DNA of 12,246 nucleotides from a virus (lineage: Duplodnaviria; Heunggongvirae; Uroviricota; Caudoviricetes): the IMG/VR virus record IMGVR_UViG_3300040801_001888; one strand, written 5' to 3'. This document shows positions 206-9,097 of this stretch, one piece after another. The notes below the pieces were generated by a model, which saw only the letters and a program-made list of their open reading frames with translations, did not search any database and was not told where the DNA came from. How positions within the stretch are numbered: position 1 is the first letter of the stretch; each line of letters opens with the position of its first letter. Made by a program: the position numbers and the translations under genes.

Positions 206-685
206 ATGGCGGCTCGCGCAGCATCCAACTCAATCGGCACAACACCGTCCAATGAAGTCAGCGGAAGTGCCTTCGATACGCGCAAACCCCCGAGCATCCC
301 CAACGGACTCCGCCGGGATGTTCGCGGGCAGGTAAAGCGAATCCTGGAACACAATGTCCACCTCTGGGATGAGTCCCAGATGCCGGCTATTTTACGCCTG
401 GCTCGCCTTCAAGCCGACATCGAACTGATGAACGACGAGATCGATAAAGTCGGCTTTATGGTCATGACCGAAAAGGGCGACGAGAAGATCAATCCAATGA
501 TCGCCACGCGCGATGGGGCAATGCGCGGCGCGCTCGCCCTTGAACGCCAGCTCTCCATCACGTTCACCGCCCGTGGCGCCGGCGTGAAAAAGTCAGAGCA
601 AGTGAAGCCCGCCGCCCCAGCGAAAAGCACCGGGCAGGCTAAGCCTCCCGCCGGCGCGCCGGTGCGTAAGCTGCGCCTGGCATGA
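206..685 (+). CDS. terS: Terminase small subunit, P27/HK97-like family
   Basis: 159 aa; GGAG RBS at 194-197, 8 nt before the ATG; PP..P near the N-terminus and G.....G..K.NP......A......L..L.IT..AR near the C-terminus, typical of P27-family TerS; lies upstream of terL. Confidence 0.85.
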   Translation: MAARAASNSIGTTPSNEVSGSAFDTRKPPSIPNGLRRDVRGQVKRILEHNVHLWDESQMPAILRLARLQADIELMNDEIDKVGFMVMTEKGDEKINPMIATRDGAMRGALALERQLSITFTARGAGVKKSEQVKPAAPAKSTGQAKPPAGAPVRKLRLA

Positions 686-900
686 CACGTAGACCCGATT
701 TGACGCCGGAGCAACGCGATCGCGTCTCCGGACTCATCCAACGGGCACACGTTGCCATCAACCATCCGGTGACGGCGGGACCGCGTTGGGCCAAGTACGA
801 TTCGAAGCGCGTGCGGTTGGCGCTAGACGCCCTATGGGAGTCCCATTTGATCCTGACAGGCGGGCACGTGAAAGACACGGAAGGCAATGAAGCTTCCTGA
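682..900 (+). CDS. Hypothetical protein, 72 aa, between terS and terL
   Basis: ATGA overlap with the terS stop (682-685) and 14-nt overlap with the terL start; no recognised motif. Confidence 0.65.
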   Translation: MTRRPDLTPEQRDRVSGLIQRAHVAINHPVTAGPRWAKYDSKRVRLALDALWESHLILTGGHVKDTEGNEAS

Positions 901-2686
901 CAACCCCCTGGCGCGGGCCTGCGAGCAGACCCTGCGCCGCCAATTCAACGCCGCCGAACCGGGATCGAGCCAGCACCAGATACTGAAACGGGTGCTGGAG
1001 TTCCCGTTCTCGAAGTACCCCGACACCACGGCACCGTGGCATCTGCTGACGCACGACCCGGCGCACATGCGCTGGGATCACGTCGCCGATGTCATCGAGA
1101 TCATAGATAGCCTGCGCCAGCCCACGGGCAGTTCCATGGGGCAGCCGATCACGTTGGAACCGTTCCAGGTGATCATCGTGCTGGCGTTCCTCGGTCCGGA
1201 AGACCCTATTACGCAGAAGCGGGTGGTCCGCGAAGGCTTGCTGACCCTTTCGAGAAAATCGGGGAAAACCGCGTTGATAGCAGGGTTAATTACCGCCCTG
1301 CTCTCCCTCAGCCCAGACAACTACGGTCTGCTTGGACAAGAGATCCAGGTAGGCGCGTCCGACCGCGAGCAAGCGGGCATTCTGTTCCAGATGGTCGATC
1401 GCATGATCAGCCTGGACAACTCGCTCGGCATCAGCGAAAAGTTCAAATCGGTCCCATCGAAAAAACTGCTCAAGCATTCGAGTACGCTGACGCAATTGCG
1501 CTGCCTCTCATCGGACGCGCATCGCCATCACGGTGGTAATGCTGCAATCATTCTGATCGATGAGATCGGCAACGTGAGCAGCGCGCAAGCGGAGGAGTTC
1601 TATTCCGTTCTGACCACGGGCGATGGCGCACAGGCGGAACCGCTGACGTTTCTCTTCTCGACGCAAGCGGCGACGGACCAGCACTTCTTCAGCGTCGCGG
1701 TCGATCGGGCGAAAGCGCTCAATGAAGGCAAGCTCACCCCGGACTCCTTCGCCGGGTTCGTTTTCGAGTTGCCAGAGACGGACGCCGCCGGCGAGAAAGT
1801 CGACCCCTACGACGAGGATTATTGGTATCTCGCCAATCCCGGACTGGGCACGATTACCAATGTGCGCTCGATTCGCGACTGGGCGACCAAGGCGAAAGAG
1901 ATGCCCTCGCTGGAGAACAAGTACCGTCTTCTGAAAATGAACCAGCGGGTGAGCGAGACATCCGGTTACGTCTCGCGCACGGTCTGGGAAGAGAACGCAG
2001 GCGGCGGGCTACCGGACCCCTCTGAACTTTACGGGCGTGCATGCTGGCTCGGACTCGACCTGTCCGAGACCACCGACTTGACCGCGCTGGTGGCGATCTT
2101 TGAGCCGCCCCTGGATGACCTCGACGGGCTCATGGACGTGTTGCCCTACTTCTGGATACCCGGCGACGACCTGGAGGCGCGCTCGAAGCGCGATCACGTT
2201 CCCTATACGCAATGGGCGCGCGAGGGTCTCATCGACACCAGCTCGGCGCGCACGATCGACTACGGCAGCATCGCGGACCGGATCATTCACATGATCGAGA
2301 ACTACGACGTGCAAGGCCTCGGCTTTGACCGCTACCGCATGAAGTACGTCATCGCGGCGCTCGCCGAGAGGAAGTACGAGTGGGGCGAGGACGACACGTT
2401 CCTGGTGCCGATCGGACAGGGCTTTCTTGATCAGACCCGGTCGCTGCAGGTGCTGGATGACCTACTGCTAAACCGGAAGCTGCGCCACGGCAACCACCCC
2501 ATCCTGAAATGGAATGCCGCTAATGCCGTGGTAGTCAAAGACCCGGCGAACAACCGCAAGATTCAAAAGGCGCGGTCATTCGGGCGGGTCGACGGGCTGG
2601 TCGCTCTAGCGCTTGCCGCGCACGTCCGGGGCGACTCGGGGCTGGTTAGCTCGGTCGAATTCTCAGCGGAAGCCTTGATCGGCTAG
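887..2686 (+). CDS. terL: Terminase large subunit (HK97-like, Terminase_1 type)
   Basis: 599 aa; ITLEPFQ motif, Walker A SRKSGKT, Walker B IILIDE, nuclease-domain motifs GLDLSETTDLTA, FDRY and VDGLVALALA. Confidence 0.97.
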   Translation: MKLPDNPLARACEQTLRRQFNAAEPGSSQHQILKRVLEFPFSKYPDTTAPWHLLTHDPAHMRWDHVADVIEIIDSLRQPTGSSMGQPITLEPFQVIIVLAFLGPEDPITQKRVVREGLLTLSRKSGKTALIAGLITALLSLSPDNYGLLGQEIQVGASDREQAGILFQMVDRMISLDNSLGISEKFKSVPSKKLLKHSSTLTQLRCLSSDAHRHHGGNAAIILIDEIGNVSSAQAEEFYSVLTTGDGAQAEPLTFLFSTQAATDQHFFSVAVDRAKALNEGKLTPDSFAGFVFELPETDAAGEKVDPYDEDYWYLANPGLGTITNVRSIRDWATKAKEMPSLENKYRLLKMNQRVSETSGYVSRTVWEENAGGGLPDPSELYGRACWLGLDLSETTDLTALVAIFEPPLDDLDGLMDVLPYFWIPGDDLEARSKRDHVPYTQWAREGLIDTSSARTIDYGSIADRIIHMIENYDVQGLGFDRYRMKYVIAALAERKYEWGEDDTFLVPIGQGFLDQTRSLQVLDDLLLNRKLRHGNHPILKWNAANAVVVKDPANNRKIQKARSFGRVDGLVALALAAHVRGDSGLVSSVEFSAEALIG

Positions 2687-2968: not shown

Positions 2969-2996
2969 TTGACATTTCCTGCGCGGTCGCTATCCT
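2969..2996 (+). promoter_or_regulatory. Sigma70-type promoter (TTGACA-N16-TATCCT), expected start near 3003-3004
   Basis: Perfect -35 at 2969-2974, -10 at 2991-2996, A-tract (AAAAAG) directly upstream, AT-rich island in GC-rich DNA. Confidence 0.65.
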
Positions 2997-3002
2997 GCTG
3001 GG

Positions 3003-3212
3003 TATGTGCGAAGCGCGAAACAGACCCCCGCCAGGTCAGCGCCGAAAGAAGGACCAGCCCCCCTTCGACGGCGACTAGCCTTCGCACGCCTCATTCTTAC
3101 CGAGCAACGGACCCCCGGTCTCGGTAGCCACCTACCTCTTGGTGCGGCTACCATGCTCGATTCTCGCTTCCTGACTCACCTCCTTTTGACCCGCCTTGCG
3201 GCGGGTTTCTTT
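3003..3212 (+). ncRNA. Putative structured RNA or attenuator leader (~210 nt)
   Basis: Bounded by a promoter and a terminator. Stems: GTGCGAAG 3006-3013 / CTTCGCAC 3080-3087; TACCGAG 3098-3104 / CTCGGTA 3120-3126; GGTAGCC 3123-3129 / GGCTACC 3146-3152; anti-SD tract TCACCTCCTT 3176-3185. Family not identified. Confidence 0.55.
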
Positions 3213-3248
3213 GTGCGCGCGTCATTCGCGCGGGATGAGCGTCCGTGA
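3153..3248 (+). CDS. Candidate 31-aa leader peptide spanning the terminator (MLDSRFLTHLLLTRLAAGFFVRASFARDERP)
   Basis: ATG 3153 with GGTG 8 nt upstream; its TGA (3246-3248) overlaps the GTG (3245-3247) of the next ORF. This is the 3' part of track ORF 3006..3248. Could be incidental. Confidence 0.3.
   Translation: MLDSRFLTHLLLTRLAAGFFVRASFARDERP
3188..3212 (+). terminator. Intrinsic (Rho-independent) terminator
   Basis: Stem ACCCGCC 3189-3195 / GGCGGGT 3200-3206, loop TTGC, with TTTCTTT at 3206-3212. Confidence 0.8.
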
Positions 3249-3421
3249 GTGCCGAGCAATCCGGCGGGGTCTCGTCCTGCGAGCGCCCAATGACGCTGCT
3301 CGAGATTCTCACGCGTCGGCCCATGACCGAAGAAGAGTCCGCCGCGTTTCAGAACCTGCTGCGCAACATCGAGAGTGCGCGCAACCCGGAACACCTTGAT
3401 AGCGAGGACGCCCCCGCATGA
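3245..3421 (+). CDS. Small hypothetical protein, 58 aa from GTG 3245 or 43 aa from ATG 3290 (not in ORF track)
   Basis: Translates (M)SAEQSGGVSSCERPMTLLEILTRRPMTEEESAAFQNLLRNIESARNPEHLDSEDAPA; the TGA at 3419-3421 forms an ATGA overlap with the protease start; GGGATGAG lies upstream of the GTG. Confidence 0.55.
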   Translation: MSAEQSGGVSSCERPMTLLEILTRRPMTEEESAAFQNLLRNIESARNPEHLDSEDAPA

Positions 3422-4062
3422 ACAAGAAATTCACGACCGGCTACATTCAGAAAGTCGCTCCTGCGTCATCTTCTGACGACGATATGGAGCTGGACGAGCC
3501 AGACGTGCCCGCCTACGCAGGCAGTTTCGTCCTGAACGAAGAGTCTCCGGATCGAATGGGCGACGTGATCGTCGCGTCGGGCTGGGACTTAGCCAACTTC
3601 AAGCGGAATCCGATCGCCCTATGGATGCATGAGTCGGACGAACCGATCGGCACCTGGGAAAACGTCAAGGTCGCGGGCAAGCAACTGGTCGGCGATCTGA
3701 AACTCGGCACGAATGACATGGCCCAGATGACGCGTAAGCTGATCGAGGAGGGCATCCTTCGTGCCGTGTCGGTCGGCTTCCGGGTGCTCGACTATGAGCC
3801 GATGGATCAGCAAGATCCCTGGGGTCCGTGGTTGATCAAAGCCGCTGAATTGCTTGAGGTTTCCGCAGTATCAATTCCGGCCCATCCAAACGCCCTCCGT
3901 ATTTCCAAAGAGTTCGGCCTGAACCGGGCTCAACGTGAACTGATCTTCGGCGCGTCTTCTCCCGCCGTGCAGATCGATCCCGCCGTTCGGGAAAAAGCGA
4001 CCCATCCAGCGGTTATCCGCGCCCGGCACATCCTCGCGGATGCCCAAAAATCCCTGCGCTGA
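3418..4062 (+). CDS. HK97-family prohead maturation protease
   Basis: 214 aa; DRMGDVI...GWDL..FKRNPIALWMH, AVSVGF and ELLEVSAVSIPAHPNA, carrying the His and Ser catalytic motifs of caudoviral prohead proteases; GAGG RBS upstream. Confidence 0.95.
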   Translation: MNKKFTTGYIQKVAPASSSDDDMELDEPDVPAYAGSFVLNEESPDRMGDVIVASGWDLANFKRNPIALWMHESDEPIGTWENVKVAGKQLVGDLKLGTNDMAQMTRKLIEEGILRAVSVGFRVLDYEPMDQQDPWGPWLIKAAELLEVSAVSIPAHPNALRISKEFGLNRAQRELIFGASSPAVQIDPAVREKATHPAVIRARHILADAQKSLR

Positions 4063-4104
4063 ACGCCCATCGGCGAACGCGCGAACATCTCATGGAGTAA
4101 GTAC

Positions 4105-5598
4105 ATGAACCTTTCCGAACGTATCCAGAAGTTGAGCGAGTCTATTGGTCCCCTGAAGGACCAGCTGAAGGCCCAGATGAAGACCGCCGAGGACTTGCAG
4201 AAGAAGTTCGAGTCCGACGACGCGGAAGAGGGCGACGAGAACCTCCCGGCCATGCTTGCCGCTGCCTCTGACGAGATCGTCAAGACCAAAGGCGAACTGG
4301 ACAAGCTGACCGAGCAGCGCGACAACCTGCTCAAGTTCGAGAAGTCCTTATCCGGTCGCGCCGCGCCCGCCACCCCTACGGCGCCGAACGTCATCAAGTC
4401 CCAGTATCGCAGTGACGACGACCGCCCCGGCATGCTGTTCGCCAAGATGCACGTTGCCGCAGCGATCGCCTACGCCCGTGGCGTGCAAACCGACCAAGTG
4501 ATGGACGACATCTACGGCGAAGACGAGAAGGTCATGGCCGTCTCGCAGTTCGTTCGGCAGAAGGCGGGCGTCGTTCCGGCTACCACGACTGGCGTGGGCT
4601 GGGCGGCTGAGCTGGTCCGCAACGAGACGCGTGGCTACCTCGACACCCTGCGCACGACCTCCATCGGCGCCGCGATCGCGACCCGTTCGATGGTCCTCGA
4701 TTTCGGCTCGGCCAACAGCGTGACCGTTCCGCGCCGTAACGCGATCGGTCTGCCTCCGACTGAGCCGGCGTGGGTAGGTGAAGGCGGCGTGATCCCGCTC
4801 CAGCAGTTCTCGTTCGGCGCCACCACGCTGAACCGCTACAAGCTGGCCTCGATCACTCCGTACACCGAGGAGATCGCCGAGCAGTCTATCCCGCAGATCG
4901 AGACCCTGCTCCTGTCCGCCATGGACGAGAGCTACACCGTCATGCTCGATACCGCCGTGATGTCCGCTGGTGCCGCTGTCGGTGGCATCCGCCCCGCCGG
5001 CCTGCTCAACGGCGTTACCCCGCTGACCGGTAGTGCTGCCGGCGGCTACGAAGCCATCGTTGCCGACATGAAGGCGATGATGACTGAGCTGTCCAACGCC
5101 CGTCTTGGCACGTCTCCGCTGTTGATCCTGAACGACGCCGACGCACTGTCCGCCAGCCTGGCAATGAACCCGCTGGGCCAGATGCCGTTCGCTTCCGACA
5201 TGGCTTCCGGTACGCTGCTGGGCGTTCCGTTCATCGCCAGCCAGAACCAGCCGCTCGGTCGCGCCACCATGGTTGACTGCGCCGCTTTGGCGACCGCGTT
5301 CGGTGCTCCGCAGATCCGCATGAGTTCCGAGGCGACCCTGACCATGGCCGACGCTGGTGCAGGCGCCCCGACTCAGGCTGATGATGGCTCGGGTGCCCTC
5401 GGCACCGCTGGACAGGTTCCGCCCGGTGGCGGCGCCAAGATCTCGGACATCGGCAGCGCCGGTGCCGCGTTCGCGGGCATCCAGGCGGTCAGCCTGTTCC
5501 AGACCGCCTCCATGGCGATTCGCGGTATCTGGCCGACCTCCTGGGGTGCCATGCGCCCGGGCCTGGTCTCCTCGACCGACGGCATCAACTGGGCGTAA
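4105..5598 (+). CDS. Major capsid protein, HK97 fold, with N-terminal coiled-coil delta domain
   Basis: 497 aa; GGAG at 4094-4097; charged helical N-terminus; AWVGEG..IP, YKLASIT, RPAGLLNG and VSLFQT...AIR motifs; strongly biased C-ending codon usage; follows the protease. Confidence 0.95.
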   Translation: MNLSERIQKLSESIGPLKDQLKAQMKTAEDLQKKFESDDAEEGDENLPAMLAAASDEIVKTKGELDKLTEQRDNLLKFEKSLSGRAAPATPTAPNVIKSQYRSDDDRPGMLFAKMHVAAAIAYARGVQTDQVMDDIYGEDEKVMAVSQFVRQKAGVVPATTTGVGWAAELVRNETRGYLDTLRTTSIGAAIATRSMVLDFGSANSVTVPRRNAIGLPPTEPAWVGEGGVIPLQQFSFGATTLNRYKLASITPYTEEIAEQSIPQIETLLLSAMDESYTVMLDTAVMSAGAAVGGIRPAGLLNGVTPLTGSAAGGYEAIVADMKAMMTELSNARLGTSPLLILNDADALSASLAMNPLGQMPFASDMASGTLLGVPFIASQNQPLGRATMVDCAALATAFGAPQIRMSSEATLTMADAGAGAPTQADDGSGALGTAGQVPPGGGAKISDIGSAGAAFAGIQAVSLFQTASMAIRGIWPTSWGAMRPGLVSSTDGINWA

Positions 5599-5666
5599 TT
5601 GCTCCGTGATGTGATCACTCGCGCCAGGGACGGCGCAACGCCAGCGGACTCAATCAGGAGGCACCT

Positions 5667-5942
5667 ATGCCTACCATCCTAGTGAACAAGAAGTTCAAGC
5701 TGATCAAGAAAGATGAGCTTGACGCGATGCTTGCCGCCGGCACGGCGCGCAAGTTCCCCGGCATGCCGATCTACGAGCAGTTGGAGACGCCTGCAGTGGC
5801 GGCGCCAGTGCCACCCAAGCAACCGGACCAGCCCGCCCCCGGTCCAGAGGACGACGAGAACGCGCCGACGCAGGACTACGCCACCAGAGAAATGCGGTCC
5901 AGTCGCGCGGCGTTGCGCCGGACCACGCGGAAGACCTCCTAA
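5667..5942 (+). CDS. Small hypothetical protein, 91 aa, Pro-rich middle and basic C-terminus (YATREMR)
   Basis: Strong AGGAGG RBS at 5656-5661; fills the gap between capsid and portal genes. Confidence 0.85.
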   Translation: MPTILVNKKFKLIKKDELDAMLAAGTARKFPGMPIYEQLETPAVAAPVPPKQPDQPAPGPEDDENAPTQDYATREMRSSRAALRRTTRKTS

Positions 5943-5969
5943 GGTCGTGCTATTCAGCAGAACCTTTTT
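5941..5969 (+). terminator. Weak terminator-like hairpin before the portal gene
   Basis: AAGGT 5941-5945 / ACCTT 5962-5966 outer stem, TGCT/AGCA inner stem, loop ATTC, T5 run at 5965-5969; contains a 2x2 internal loop. Confidence 0.3.
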
Positions 5970-5981
5970 CGGGGGCCGCTA

Positions 5982-7472
5982 ATGTCCGACTCCACCAACA
6001 ATCCGACGTGGCTACGGGGCGAAGCCCTCGATCGTTACATAGCCACAGGGCACGACCCCCTCGATGGCTACGCAAAGTCAGGCGGGAATTCAGGACGCGG
6101 ATTTGACCTGGTCGACTCACGCGGTCGCCCGCTGGTCATCGAGAAGGCGAACGGCGAGTGGAACGGTCCGTTCTTCGGCGCGGGCGAGAACGGAAATCTG
6201 TTCGAACTCGGACCGCTTGAACATCCCTTCCAACGCAATCTGCGGATCGGCGGGCAGGACGGCAACGCTGCCGCCTACGCATCCATCGCTGCCTATGCGC
6301 AGACGATGGCGACGATGGGCATGTACCACTACCGTCAGCTCGATAACGGCGGACGGGAGATGATCACCACGTCGGCGCTGTCGCGGATCTTGCGCTACCC
6401 GAACTGGTATCAGCATCTCAGCGACTTCATGCTGAACTTCGTCTTTGCGCTGATGACCACGGGCAACGCCTATGGGGTCGTGTTCCGCAACGACCGCAAC
6501 GAAGTCGACTCGATCCATTTGGTCCCCAGCACCAGCACGACGCCTTACGTCGAGACCGAGACGCAGTCGGTCTTCTACGGGATCGGGCCTAATCCGATGC
6601 TGCAGACCCCGATGATGCTGGTCCCGGCTCGCGACGTGCTGCATGTGAGGCTGTTTACCCCGCAGCACCCTCTGATCGGGGTCTCTCCGATCCGGTACGC
6701 GGCTTCTGCGATGTCGATCAACAACGCGATCTCGGGCAACCAGGCCGCGTTCTTCTCGAACATGTCGCGCCCGTCGGGCGTTCTCTCGACTGACGAGAAG
6801 CTGAACAAGGAGCAGATGGACGCGTTGCGCGCCGCGTGGGAGGCTCGGAGTAAGGGCATCAACGCGGGCTCGGTGCCGATCCTCTCTTGGGGTCTCAAGT
6901 GGCAGCAGATGACGATCACTTCCGAGGACGCCCAGCTGATCGAGGCGTACCGGATGTCTACCGAGGATATTGCTCGGGTATTCCGTGTGCCGCTCGCCCT
7001 GATCGGCGACTACACCAAGGCGACCTACAACAACACCGAAACCATGATCAACGCGTGGCTCTCCACCGGGCTGGGCTTCCTCATGGAGCACGTCGAGCGC
7101 AGCTTCGAGCAGTTCTTCAAGCTGCCCCCAGACCAAGGGGTCAACTTCGACGAGACCGTGTTGCTACGGACCGACTTCGACACGCGCATCAACGGTCTGA
7201 CCAAGGCGGTCGCCGGCGGCGTCTACTCGCCCAACGAAGCCCGGGCACGCGAGAACCTGCCAGCGGTCGAGTACGGCGATGAGCCGCGCGTTCAGGCGCA
7301 GAATCTTCCCCTGTCCGCTGTCGGGACGATGCCAGAGACGCCTGCTACGCCTGCCACGCCCGCCACGCCGGGCGACCAGCCGCCTACCGATCCGGCGACC
7401 CCGGCGGACGAGCAGGCGAGCATAGGCGAGGCTCACGACGTCATTTTGAAAAGCATGGGGATTGCGGCATAA
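5982..7472 (+). CDS. Portal protein, HK97 family
   Basis: 496 aa; ILRYPNWYQ, MTTGNAY, DVLHVR....HPLIGVSPI, FFSNMSRPSGVL, IARVFRVP..LIG, TYNNTE, GVYSPNEAR..ENLP..EYGD motifs. Exact start uncertain. Confidence 0.96.
   Translation: MSDSTNNPTWLRGEALDRYIATGHDPLDGYAKSGGNSGRGFDLVDSRGRPLVIEKANGEWNGPFFGAGENGNLFELGPLEHPFQRNLRIGGQDGNAAAYASIAAYAQTMATMGMYHYRQLDNGGREMITTSALSRILRYPNWYQHLSDFMLNFVFALMTTGNAYGVVFRNDRNEVDSIHLVPSTSTTPYVETETQSVFYGIGPNPMLQTPMMLVPARDVLHVRLFTPQHPLIGVSPIRYAASAMSINNAISGNQAAFFSNMSRPSGVLSTDEKLNKEQMDALRAAWEARSKGINAGSVPILSWGLKWQQMTITSEDAQLIEAYRMSTEDIARVFRVPLALIGDYTKATYNNTETMINAWLSTGLGFLMEHVERSFEQFFKLPPDQGVNFDETVLLRTDFDTRINGLTKAVAGGVYSPNEARARENLPAVEYGDEPRVQAQNLPLSAVGTMPETPATPATPATPGDQPPTDPATPADEQASIGEAHDVILKSMGIAA
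7338..7370 (+). repeat. 9-bp tandem coding repeat (Thr-Pro-Ala x3 plus TP) in the portal C-terminal tail
   Basis: ACGCCTGCT ACGCCTGCC ACGCCCGCC ACGCCG. Confidence 0.8.
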
Positions 7473-7473
7473 T
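7446..7473 (+). promoter_or_regulatory. Sigma70-type promoter (TTGAAA-N16-CATAAT) in the portal 3' end, expected start near 7480
   Basis: -35 at 7446-7451, -10 at 7468-7473 (5/6 each); the -10 includes the portal stop codon. Confidence 0.55.
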
Positions 7474-7480
7474 GAATGCC

Positions 7481-7570
7481 GCACTGGGTAGGGTAGCTCC
7501 CGAACAAGCGGTTTACCGTGCCGCTTTCCCAGTGCCCCCCTTCCACGGTGCGATCAGTAACGGTGCTGAT
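7481..7570 (+). ncRNA. Structured cis-regulatory RNA leader (three-way junction plus pseudoknot or kissing loop)
   Basis: GCACTGGG 7481-7488 / CCCAGTGC 7528-7535; GGG-TAGCT-CCC 7491-7501; AAGCGG 7506-7511 / CCGCTT 7521-7526 with loop TTTACCGTG complementary to CACGGTG 7544-7550; ATCAG 7553-7557 / CTGAT 7566-7570 abutting ATG 7571. Confidence 0.6.
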
Positions 7571-9097
7571 ATGAAACGTCTTGATCTTACCGGACAGCGG
7601 TTCGGGCGCCTTGTCGCTGAGTCTATTGCTGGGCCTGAGTGGCTATGCCGATGTGATTGCGGCGGGCAAACGCTGGCTCGCGCCGGGCACCTTCGGCACG
7701 GCAACGTCACGTCATGTGGATGCTCGCGCGATTTTGATAGTGACATTATCGGGAAGCGTTTCGGACTGCTGACGGTCACGGGAAGAGACTCAAAGGGCTA
7801 CGTGGCTCAGTGCGACTGCGGGAACACTACGCACGTTACGCGACGATCTCATCTGACCGGTGGCGGTGTTCGATCCTGCGGGTGCATCCGAGGACAGAGC
7901 CGGATACGCGACATTACGGGGCAACGATTCGGTAAGCTGATCGCGCGCTCGCGCACGCATGAAGGCGAGTGGGTGTGCGAATGTGACTGTGGCGGGACGA
8001 CGACGGTCCGGACAGACCACCTGACCGGCGGGCGCACCGTGTCGTGCGGGTGCCAGAGGGTGGAGTCTAAGCGAGTCAATACCGAGGTAAATGCCGTTGG
8101 AGAAACCTTCGGCAAGCTCACCGTCACGGAAGTCTCGTGGCGCGAAGATAGATGGCACAGCGTCGCGTGGGCCAATGGAACGTGTGAATGCGGAAACACG
8201 TTCGAGTCGCGTCTAGCTGATCTCAAGAATGGCACGACCCGTACCTGCGGGTGTGGTACGCACGTCTCCGGGATAGAAGAGGAGTTCGTCAGCTTTCTGC
8301 AGGATCTCGCGCCAGTGCGTCCGCAGTACCGTATCGGACGAAGAGTCTTCGATGCCGCGTTACCGGATAGGAACCTGTTGTTCGAATTCAACGGGGTTTA
8401 CTGGCACAGTTACCCCAGAACAAAGCGCGCGGCTCATGCTGACAAGAGGCGCGCTGCCGAAGACCTCGGGTTTCGCGTCATCTACGTATGGGAGGATCAA
8501 TGGCTTTACCGGACCCAGCAAGTCAAAGACTACCTGGAGCGCGTGCTGCTAGGGGCGAAGCGCAAAATAGGCGCACGGCAACTGATACCACACGACGTCC
8601 CACGTACCGACGCGGTGGCATTTCACGAGCAGTTCCATCTGCAGGGCTTCAAGAACACGATCTCCACGCTGCACTTCGGGCTGAGTTCGAAGCAAGGCGA
8701 ATTGCAAGCCGTGGCTAGCTTCTCACCTGACGGGACGCTGCACCGGTACACCGTTCGCTCGGGGGTATCCGTAGCCGGCGGGCTACCGCGAATGGTGAAA
8801 GCGTTTAGCGCGGCCACGCCGACTGCCAGCAAAGTCATCACGTTCTGCGATCGTGACCACTTCTCCGGCGGTGTCTACGAGCAAGCGGGCTTCCAGAAAA
8901 CGGGGCATTCACTGACAATGAGCTACGTGCAAAGACGCCGCAGACTTCGCCGTGAGCATTTCCAGAAGCACAAGCTCCCCGGTATTTTCAACGATGTCGA
9001 TATGTCACAGAGAGAGATCGACATCTGCGCGGCGAACAGCATCTACGCGTGCTGGAATTCGGGCGTGGACCGCTACGAACTGAGTCTCCGAACATGA
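7571..9097 (+). CDS. Hef-like putative homing endonuclease: four Cys4 Zn-binding repeats, Vsr/DUF559-like nuclease, C-terminal Mom-like GNAT-type domain
   Basis: 508 aa from ATG 7571 (541 aa from ATG 7472, which overlaps the portal stop). Four D(L/I)xGxxFGxL...CxC...(S/T)CGC repeats (7571-8254); SxxE...FD...FEFNGVYWH...GFRVIYVWEDQW nuclease motif (8267-8503); FHLQG..HFGL..ELQAVASF..LHRY..GG..VITFCDR..GGVYEQAGF tail. Confidence 0.8.
   Translation: MKRLDLTGQRFGRLVAESIAGPEWLCRCDCGGQTLARAGHLRHGNVTSCGCSRDFDSDIIGKRFGLLTVTGRDSKGYVAQCDCGNTTHVTRRSHLTGGGVRSCGCIRGQSRIRDITGQRFGKLIARSRTHEGEWVCECDCGGTTTVRTDHLTGGRTVSCGCQRVESKRVNTEVNAVGETFGKLTVTEVSWREDRWHSVAWANGTCECGNTFESRLADLKNGTTRTCGCGTHVSGIEEEFVSFLQDLAPVRPQYRIGRRVFDAALPDRNLLFEFNGVYWHSYPRTKRAAHADKRRAAEDLGFRVIYVWEDQWLYRTQQVKDYLERVLLGAKRKIGARQLIPHDVPRTDAVAFHEQFHLQGFKNTISTLHFGLSSKQGELQAVASFSPDGTLHRYTVRSGVSVAGGLPRMVKAFSAATPTASKVITFCDRDHFSGGVYEQAGFQKTGHSLTMSYVQRRRRLRREHFQKHKLPGIFNDVDMSQREIDICAANSIYACWNSGVDRYELSLRT

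Follow-up and report, generated by a model that had tools for sequence, protein, structure and literature searches.

A predicted int-alpA leader of a phage homing endonuclease gene and a probably separate structured RNA ahead of the head genes

The window considered here, a 12,246-nucleotide fragment of an uncultured tailed phage (IMG/VR record IMGVR_UViG_3300040801_001888), contains two elements that invite comparison. E1 (3003-3093) lies in the gap between the terminase and protease genes and E2 (7480-7550) in the gap between the portal gene and the gene for a homing endonuclease. Both carry a similar C-rich 17-mer (3057-3073 and 7534-7550), and the only two sites on the + strand that match a sigma70-like promoter at 10 of 12 positions each lie just upstream of one of them (Table 1). 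Are these two copies of one RNA, as the original prediction proposed, or two RNAs that happen to share a stretch of sequence? We consider the second answer quite probable: E2 would be an endonuclease leader of the int-alpA type, E1 a separate structured RNA, and the 17-mer coincidental. The main practical result is a negative one, namely that E1 and E2 should not be merged into one family.

The int-alpA RNA (Rfam RF02996) is a candidate structured RNA that was typed as a small RNA (sRNA) and catalogued with no function assigned (Weinberg et al. 2017, PMC5737381). Judged from its predicted fold, E2 is a diverged new member. It has the closing helix (P1) of about 8 bp seen in the consensus, followed by UA, a short P1a hairpin, the GAAC version of the GAAA/GAAC junction strand, and a P2 hairpin of 5-6 bp with a 9-nt loop. 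Downstream of P1 come a linker rich in pyrimidines and a purine-rich strand able to pair with the P2 loop, again as in the consensus; the difference lies in the last P1 pair, which is G-C in E2 and C-G in the consensus. The conserved segment of E2, UAGGGUAGCUCCCGAAC, is the commonest form among more than 100 viral copies.

Further support for this assignment comes from R2, a covariance model of P1, P1a, and P2 built from 17 independent copies, with this phage and contig L060 (discussed below) left out. The three source copies tested with Rfam (L140, L064, and L093) pass the Rfam gathering cut-off of 35.8 bits, and several copies of the family are called int-alpA by Rfam at 46.3, 46.0, and 43.8 bits. 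Covariation in the R2 alignment is strong: pairing holds in 92% of cells, both partners vary in 14 of 16 pairs, and none of 500 shuffles attains the covariation score of the real alignment. Run on the window with filters off, R2 recovers the E2 core at 46.4 bits (E 5e-12), and the rest of the window scores 10 bits or less. Another model, R1, built from a plain MAFFT alignment, captured P1 only and was not used.

Two Rfam results weigh against the assignment. A cmscan search with RF02996 of Rfam 15 gave no match to E2 even at E<=10, also in a 161-nt search, and the E2 orthologue in L060 scores 31.7 bits with the same model, below the cut-off. Because E2 has every structural element of the consensus, we regard the miss as a sensitivity limit of the Rfam model. 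Diverged phage copies of int-alpA are probably under-counted by annotation based on Rfam, and the window adds one copy that was missed in this way.

The L060 contig carries a homologous endonuclease with 41% identity in the same slot, in the order portal, an 88-nt gap, endonuclease, and fibre gene. Positions 1348-1404 of this contig score 41.5 bits with R2 and represent the positional orthologue of E2. Relative to E2, P1 has changed from CUGGG/CCCAG to CUGAC/GUCAG, with GCGCUGAC/GUCAGCGU in place of the E2 strands, and P2 from AAGCGG/CCGCUU to GGGAGG/CCUCCU, both in a compensatory manner. Compensatory changes are also found in the loop-to-3' pairing and in the hairpin that precedes the start codon, and UAGGnUAGCUnCCGAAC is unchanged between the two.

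E1 is a real, conserved, and lineage-restricted structured RNA unit ahead of the head genes, distinct from E2. Its minimum-energy fold is a three-way junction, and the transcript from the predicted start folds with z = -4.7, a value that 0 of 200 shuffles equal. Relatives, including L180 and L181, were obtained by a search with the large terminase (TerL), which is 95% identical to that of the window in L180 and 72% identical in L181; a portal-based search for related viral loci found none. The whole promoter-to-terminator block of E1 has an orthologue in L180 with 87% identity over 325 nt, and within it positions 3003-3093 show 1 difference in about 90 bases (C3027A, in a loop), with flanks that are ~10-13% diverged. 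The promoter is in the same place in both relatives (TTGACA-15-TATTCT in L180 and TTGACT-17-TACTCT in L181), and the terminator is kept in L180, with a single C-to-T change that leaves a G-U pair. Soil and urban metagenomes supplied two contigs, X4 and X6, with ~90% identity to E1. They carry C3042T and G3071A together, a double change that keeps a pair in the helix 3039-3044/3069-3075. Loop indels are tolerated in these relatives, and the rebuilt X4 sequence folds into the same three-way junction. The loop of hairpin H3 is conserved in the window, L180, and X4 and is the same in L181; in its stem, A3103G and T3121C are compatible with pairing in L180, and two pairs are swapped in L181. The 32-codon open reading frame (ORF) after ATG 3153, by comparison, is frameshifted in L180. 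A point to be set against a conserved unit is the small number of copies found, 3-4 closely related ones and a partial one in L181, which retains parts of hairpin B and H3 but not the E1 junction.

Searches beyond these relatives gave little. Rfam has nothing credible at E1, and a blastn search of a phage database with the E1 region returned no match. The H3-loop pattern ACGGACCNCCGGNNNNGGTAG has 6 matches in viral contigs and more than 120 in metagenome contigs (9 in hairpin context), with no credible E1 homologue among them, and the E1 junction pattern has 8 matches in 185,579 genomes, all in unrelated, coding-type context in GC-rich genomes. A likeness of 3031-3059 to domain IV of signal recognition particle (SRP) RNA was dropped, as Rfam gives no SRP match and the E1 fold pairs those bases differently.

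The comparison of the two elements is most direct when a model of one is run against the other. R2, the model from homologues of E2, does not match E1 (E<=10, filters off), and R3, a model of the E1 junction, finds E1 only, with no match to E2 and none in 0.9 Mb of endonuclease-rich phage contigs. The single family of the original prediction fails in both directions, and its idea of an RNA control module that is reused and moves together with an accessory insertion can be kept for E2 and not for E1.

What, then, is the shared 17-mer? The two copies do agree at 15 of 17 positions. Over the whole window such agreement is unremarkable: 36 same-strand 17-mer pairs reach 15/17 or better, compared with 7-14 in dinucleotide shuffles, the excess probably being due to repeats in the fibre gene, and blastn-short gives the match an E of about 0.5-1.2. 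Counting against a coincidence is the comparison restricted to the two segments downstream of the promoters, where 15/17 is reached in 1 of 300 dinucleotide shuffles; the coincidence is hence not a trivial one, although that framing was picked after the fact. In the orthologues the motif is not conserved. X4 has four substitutions and one insertion across the E1 copy and has lost its first G, and the L060 orthologue of E2 reads GCGTCCCTTCTTTTCGGTG at the corresponding position. This lack of conservation argues both against a conserved RNA segment and against a shared protein site. The motif also occupies structurally non-equivalent positions in E1 and E2, and we conclude that it is a coincidence of C-rich sequence.

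Of the alternatives, the one that fares best, although we consider it unlikely, is that E1 is a circularly permuted relative of int-alpA that would keep the three-way core but start and end within the P1a arm, with a loop capping P1. The E1 junction strands C/UA/G and C/GAAAC match int-alpA in permuted order, a result that speaks against a full separation of the two RNAs and means that E1 and int-alpA could be distantly related. E1 reads hairpin B (C3075-G3039), UA, G3078-C3016, helix, GAAAC(A), hairpin A, A, hairpin B, which corresponds to P1, UA, P1a, GAAAC, P2, N, P1 of int-alpA. A descriptor of this topology matches E1 and gives 28 control matches above its thresholds in 16 Mb-strands, none with helices of E1 length. 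The descriptor was designed from E1, however, and is hence post hoc, and in 1.6 Mb of phage contigs rich in int-alpA its matches are not enriched (3 real ones versus 13 in the reversed control). The failure of R3 to find relatives and the missing junction in L181 also argue against permutation, as do two features of E1 itself: it has no loop-complementary site ~9 nt after its closing helix, and no endonuclease gene follows it. If the permuted relationship were true, E1 and E2 would be related through permutation rather than collinearly. E1 would then have entered service in the head-gene operon, as its promoter-proximal leader or small RNA, and not in front of an endonuclease gene, and the int-alpA core would be a self-contained structural module able to function with different connectivities and in different contexts.

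A collinear model, in which E1 has the P1, mini-hairpin, GAA(A)C, hairpin, and pseudoknot to GG(C/U)G of E2 together with a 16-nt insertion, is far less likely. The features on which it was built are present in the sequence. In addition to the 17-mer, CTGGGTA occurs at 2998-3004 and 7484-7490, the AG(C/T)AACGG motif is found as AGCAACGG at 3103-3110 and as AGTAACGG at 7556-7563, both elements have a hairpin abutting an ATG, and both promoters are where they had been placed. E1 can even be aligned by hand to the Rfam consensus (UA, GUGC-GAA-GCGC, GAAAC, and a hairpin with a C-rich loop). The proposed parse (P1, a 3-bp mini-hairpin, GAAC, P2 hairpin, and loop-to-3' pairing) is borne out for E2; for E1 it breaks down in the orthologues, which disrupt both the P1 and the pseudoknot. 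The putative 3' strand of P1, CCAGC, loses A3056 and G3057 and carries C3055T in X4, and its partner GCTGG (2997-3001) lies upstream of the predicted transcription start, as the original prediction had itself cautioned. The putative pseudoknot GGCG:CGCC is broken by G3071A, for which C3042T compensates in a different helix, that of hairpin B. CTGGGTA reads GGCGGTA in L180. The linker and pseudoknot strand are not conserved in sequence across the wider int-alpA family, and the competing three-way junction of E1 has many more GC-rich pairs than the collinear fold.

That the 17-mer is instead the DNA site of a phage regulator acting downstream of two promoters has very little to recommend it. Both copies do lie 60-75 nt downstream of the only two strong + strand promoter-like sites, and a third partial copy, CCCCGCTTCCACG, is present at 2950-2962, but, apart from the loss of the motif in both sets of orthologues, the spacing from the -10 differs (61 nt in E1 versus 61+ nt in a different register in E2), CTGGGTA lies 2 nt after the -10 in one case and 10 nt in the other, and exact or near-exact copies in viral contigs do not share a similar context (45 exact matches to GCCCCCCTTCSACGG, none with similar surroundings). 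The third copy matches 7535-7547 at 12 of 13 positions; it immediately precedes the -35 of the E1 promoter and is not preserved in L180. A coding reading of E2, in which the endonuclease starts at ATG 7472, overlapping the portal stop, and 7475-7570 encodes an N-terminal extension, can practically be set aside: no stop interrupts the frame between 7472 and ATG 7571, with which it is in phase, but the equivalent frame in L060 is closed by a stop after 3 codons, from which we take E2 to be non-coding, and the RNA helices there covary, the proteins encoded behind family copies are unrelated, their start codons typically lying 26-43 nt after P1, and the conserved N-terminal repeat of the endonuclease begins directly after M34.

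Table 1. Genes, predicted promoters, and predicted RNA features of the window.
Feature	Position	Strand	Remarks
Small terminase gene	206-685	+	
Large terminase (TerL) gene	887-2686	+	
E1 promoter, sigma70-like	2969-2996	+	TTGACA-16-TATCCT; 10/12 match
E1 three-way junction	3006-3087	+	minimum-energy fold
E1 closing helix	3006-3013/3080-3087 plus 3015-3016/3078-3079	+	
E1 junction strand GAAACA	3017-3022	+	
E1 hairpin A	3023-3026/3034-3037	+	
E1 hairpin B	3039-3044/3069-3075 plus 3048-3052/3062-3066	+	17-mer forms loop and 3' strand
E1 hairpin H3	3099-3125	+	conserved loop CRACGGACCNCCGG
E1 intrinsic terminator	3188-3213	+	closes the E1 transcription unit, ~210 nt from predicted start
Prohead protease gene	3418-4062	+	
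Capsid gene	4105-5598	+	
Portal gene	5982-7472	+	
Promoter of endonuclease cassette, sigma70-like	7446-7473	+	TTGAAA-16-CATAAT; 10/12 match
E2 core, predicted int-alpA-type three-way junction	7480-7536	+	matched by model R2
E2 P1	7481-7488/7528-7535	+	8 Watson-Crick pairs
E2 conserved segment UAGGGUAGCUCCCGAAC	7489-7505	+	includes P1a 7491-7493/7499-7501
E2 P2	7506-7511/7521-7526	+	loop 7512-7520
E2 site 1, CACGGU	7544-7549	+	putative pseudoknot partner of P2-loop ACCGUG 7515-7520, read from sequence; inside the 17-mer
E2 hairpin before start codon	7553-7573	+	7553-7557/7566-7570, then ATG 7571-7573
E2 site 2, ACGGU	7560-7564	+	in hairpin loop; may pair alternatively with ACCGU of P2 loop
Shine-Dalgarno-like GGUG	7562-7565	+	in hairpin loop, 5 nt before ATG 7571; overlapped by site 2
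Homing endonuclease gene, free-standing, 508 amino acids	7571-9097	+	phrog_559, phrog_374, phrog_3339 (HNH/homing endonuclease), E 1e-48
Collagen-like fibre gene	from ~9049	+	

With E2 taken as an int-alpA leader, its surroundings fit a mobile cassette made up of promoter, leader, and endonuclease gene. The relatives L180 and L181 lack the cassette between their portal and fibre genes, and L180 has an int-alpA copy elsewhere (16601-16657, 44.5 bits). P0003 is an endonuclease fragment with 100% identity.

How could such a leader work? The P2 loop, 9 nt long and similar to the end of 16S rRNA, has two possible partners: a decoy site that lies 9 nt beyond P1, pairing with which would create a pseudoknot, and another copy of this site that contains the ribosome-binding sequence. 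The choice between the two pairings could set the level of nuclease translation. Because the loop can pair with decoy or ribosome-binding site, E2 probably gates translation. The predicted start of its promoter coincides with the first bases of P1, and P1 would be complete in transcripts made from this promoter; on read-through mRNA, ribosomes that reach the end of the portal gene (7472) would be expected to cover the 5' strand of P1 and alter the fold. It should be kept in mind against this proposal that any regulatory switch is a prediction from sequence, as are the pseudoknot and the transcription starts.

The viral copies of the family are consistent with a gate of this kind. A scan of viral contigs with the conserved 17-mer UAGGnUAGCUnCCGAAC yielded more than 119 loci, a lower bound, and 83 non-redundant copies were used for statistics. 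In 82% of these, a Watson-Crick complement of the P2 loop, at least 5 nt long, occurs within 45 nt after P1, compared with 18% when loops are swapped between copies, and the first complements sit mostly 8-12 nt after P1. A second complement of at least 5 nt is found in 65% of copies versus 17% of controls, usually between -18 and -6 relative to the start codon, where a Shine-Dalgarno sequence is expected. A -10-like hexamer is present just upstream of P1 in 43% of the copies and in 9% of shuffles. The downstream genes mostly encode HNH, GIY-YIG, endonuclease VII, NUMOD, and AP2 endonucleases, with a minority of other accessory genes. Taken together, the promoter, the decoy site, the masked ribosome-binding site, and the unrelated endonuclease folds support a role for int-alpA as a translational gate of homing endonuclease cassettes. 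int-alpA is reportedly named after the int and alpA genes that neighbour it. E2 and most viral copies examined behave as cis leaders of homing endonuclease genes rather than as a stand-alone sRNA beside int/alpA genes.

In some viral contigs (L099, L105, and L097) a second int-alpA-type element accompanies the first. Its P1a region has diverged (GCC-GACA-GGC or CGC-AA-GCG, for instance), and the exact 17-mer pattern misses it, which indicates that the family is broader than the UAGGGUAGCUCCCGAAC subgroup. A group I intron (L159:1584-1939, Rfam 53.6 bits) lies ~1 kb downstream of another int-alpA copy and is a further sign of the richness of such contigs in selfish elements.

Structures that mask the ribosome-binding site are established for the homing endonuclease genes I-TevI, mobE, and segB (PMC3014915). 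Like the sequestering hairpins of T4 I-TevI, I-TevII/III, and segB and of Aeh1 mobE (PMC3014915), E2 is the leader of a selfish nuclease gene and would be able to mask a ribosome-binding site, and in both cases the outcome probably depends on the promoter that makes the transcript. The T4 and Aeh1 examples are simple, gene-specific hairpins, whereas E2 combines a conserved three-way junction with a predicted pseudoknot and a decoy, an arrangement that is common to many unrelated endonuclease genes.

For E1, the layout suggests a different role. Transcription would begin at the promoter of E1 and stop at a terminator ~210 nt further on, directly before the head genes, and the RNA would consist of a tight three-way junction, the hairpin with the conserved loop, and a hairpin beside an unconserved ATG. 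Most likely, E1 is a leader or small RNA that controls read-through into the protease, capsid, and portal genes, although this is a guess from layout alone, which counts against it. Promoter-proximal leader and terminator units ahead of phage late genes are known from lambda, where PR', the 6S RNA, and tR' operate with Q, and from the put RNAs of HK022. E1 would resemble these in having a strong promoter, a structured and conserved RNA, a terminator ~200 nt on, and morphogenesis genes next; the resemblance is one of layout, as Q-like or put-like sequence features were not identified. E1, which has a narrow distribution, may thus control late-gene read-through in an uncultured phage group. The loop of hairpin A, CCCGCC (3027-3032), is identical to the 5' arm of the terminator and complementary to its 3' arm, GGCGGG (3200-3205), both within 3189-3205, and could in principle compete with terminator formation. 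The CCGCC:GGCGG complementarity is kept in L180 but may be due to chance, because the sequences are GC-rich and of low complexity.

In relatives, the gap between TerL and the protease and capsid genes is an accessory-gene hot spot: L183 has a dCMP deaminase there, L184 a cytosine DNA methylase together with many small ORFs, and L180 three small ORFs. In the window, a 67-amino-acid ORF on the minus strand (2683-2886), convergent with TerL and overlapping its stop codon, encodes a protein that has a zinc ribbon (CxxC...CxxC) and weakly resembles an internal segment of HNH endonucleases (phrog_1271, E 8.5e-6). A promoter-like site on the minus strand (2947-2919) faces this ORF, the DNA of which is ~90% conserved in L180. 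The ORF may be what is left of a further endonuclease gene, or else a small regulator. Inteins (PF14528) are present in several TerL homologues (P0129 and P0150). The closest relative, L180, is a 61-kb contig in which the phage part (L180:1-9100) lies beside bacterial metabolic genes for a heterodisulfide-reductase-like protein, MTHFR, and an aminotransferase. Because these genes adjoin it, the L180 copy is probably a prophage, a context that offers a handle on the host.

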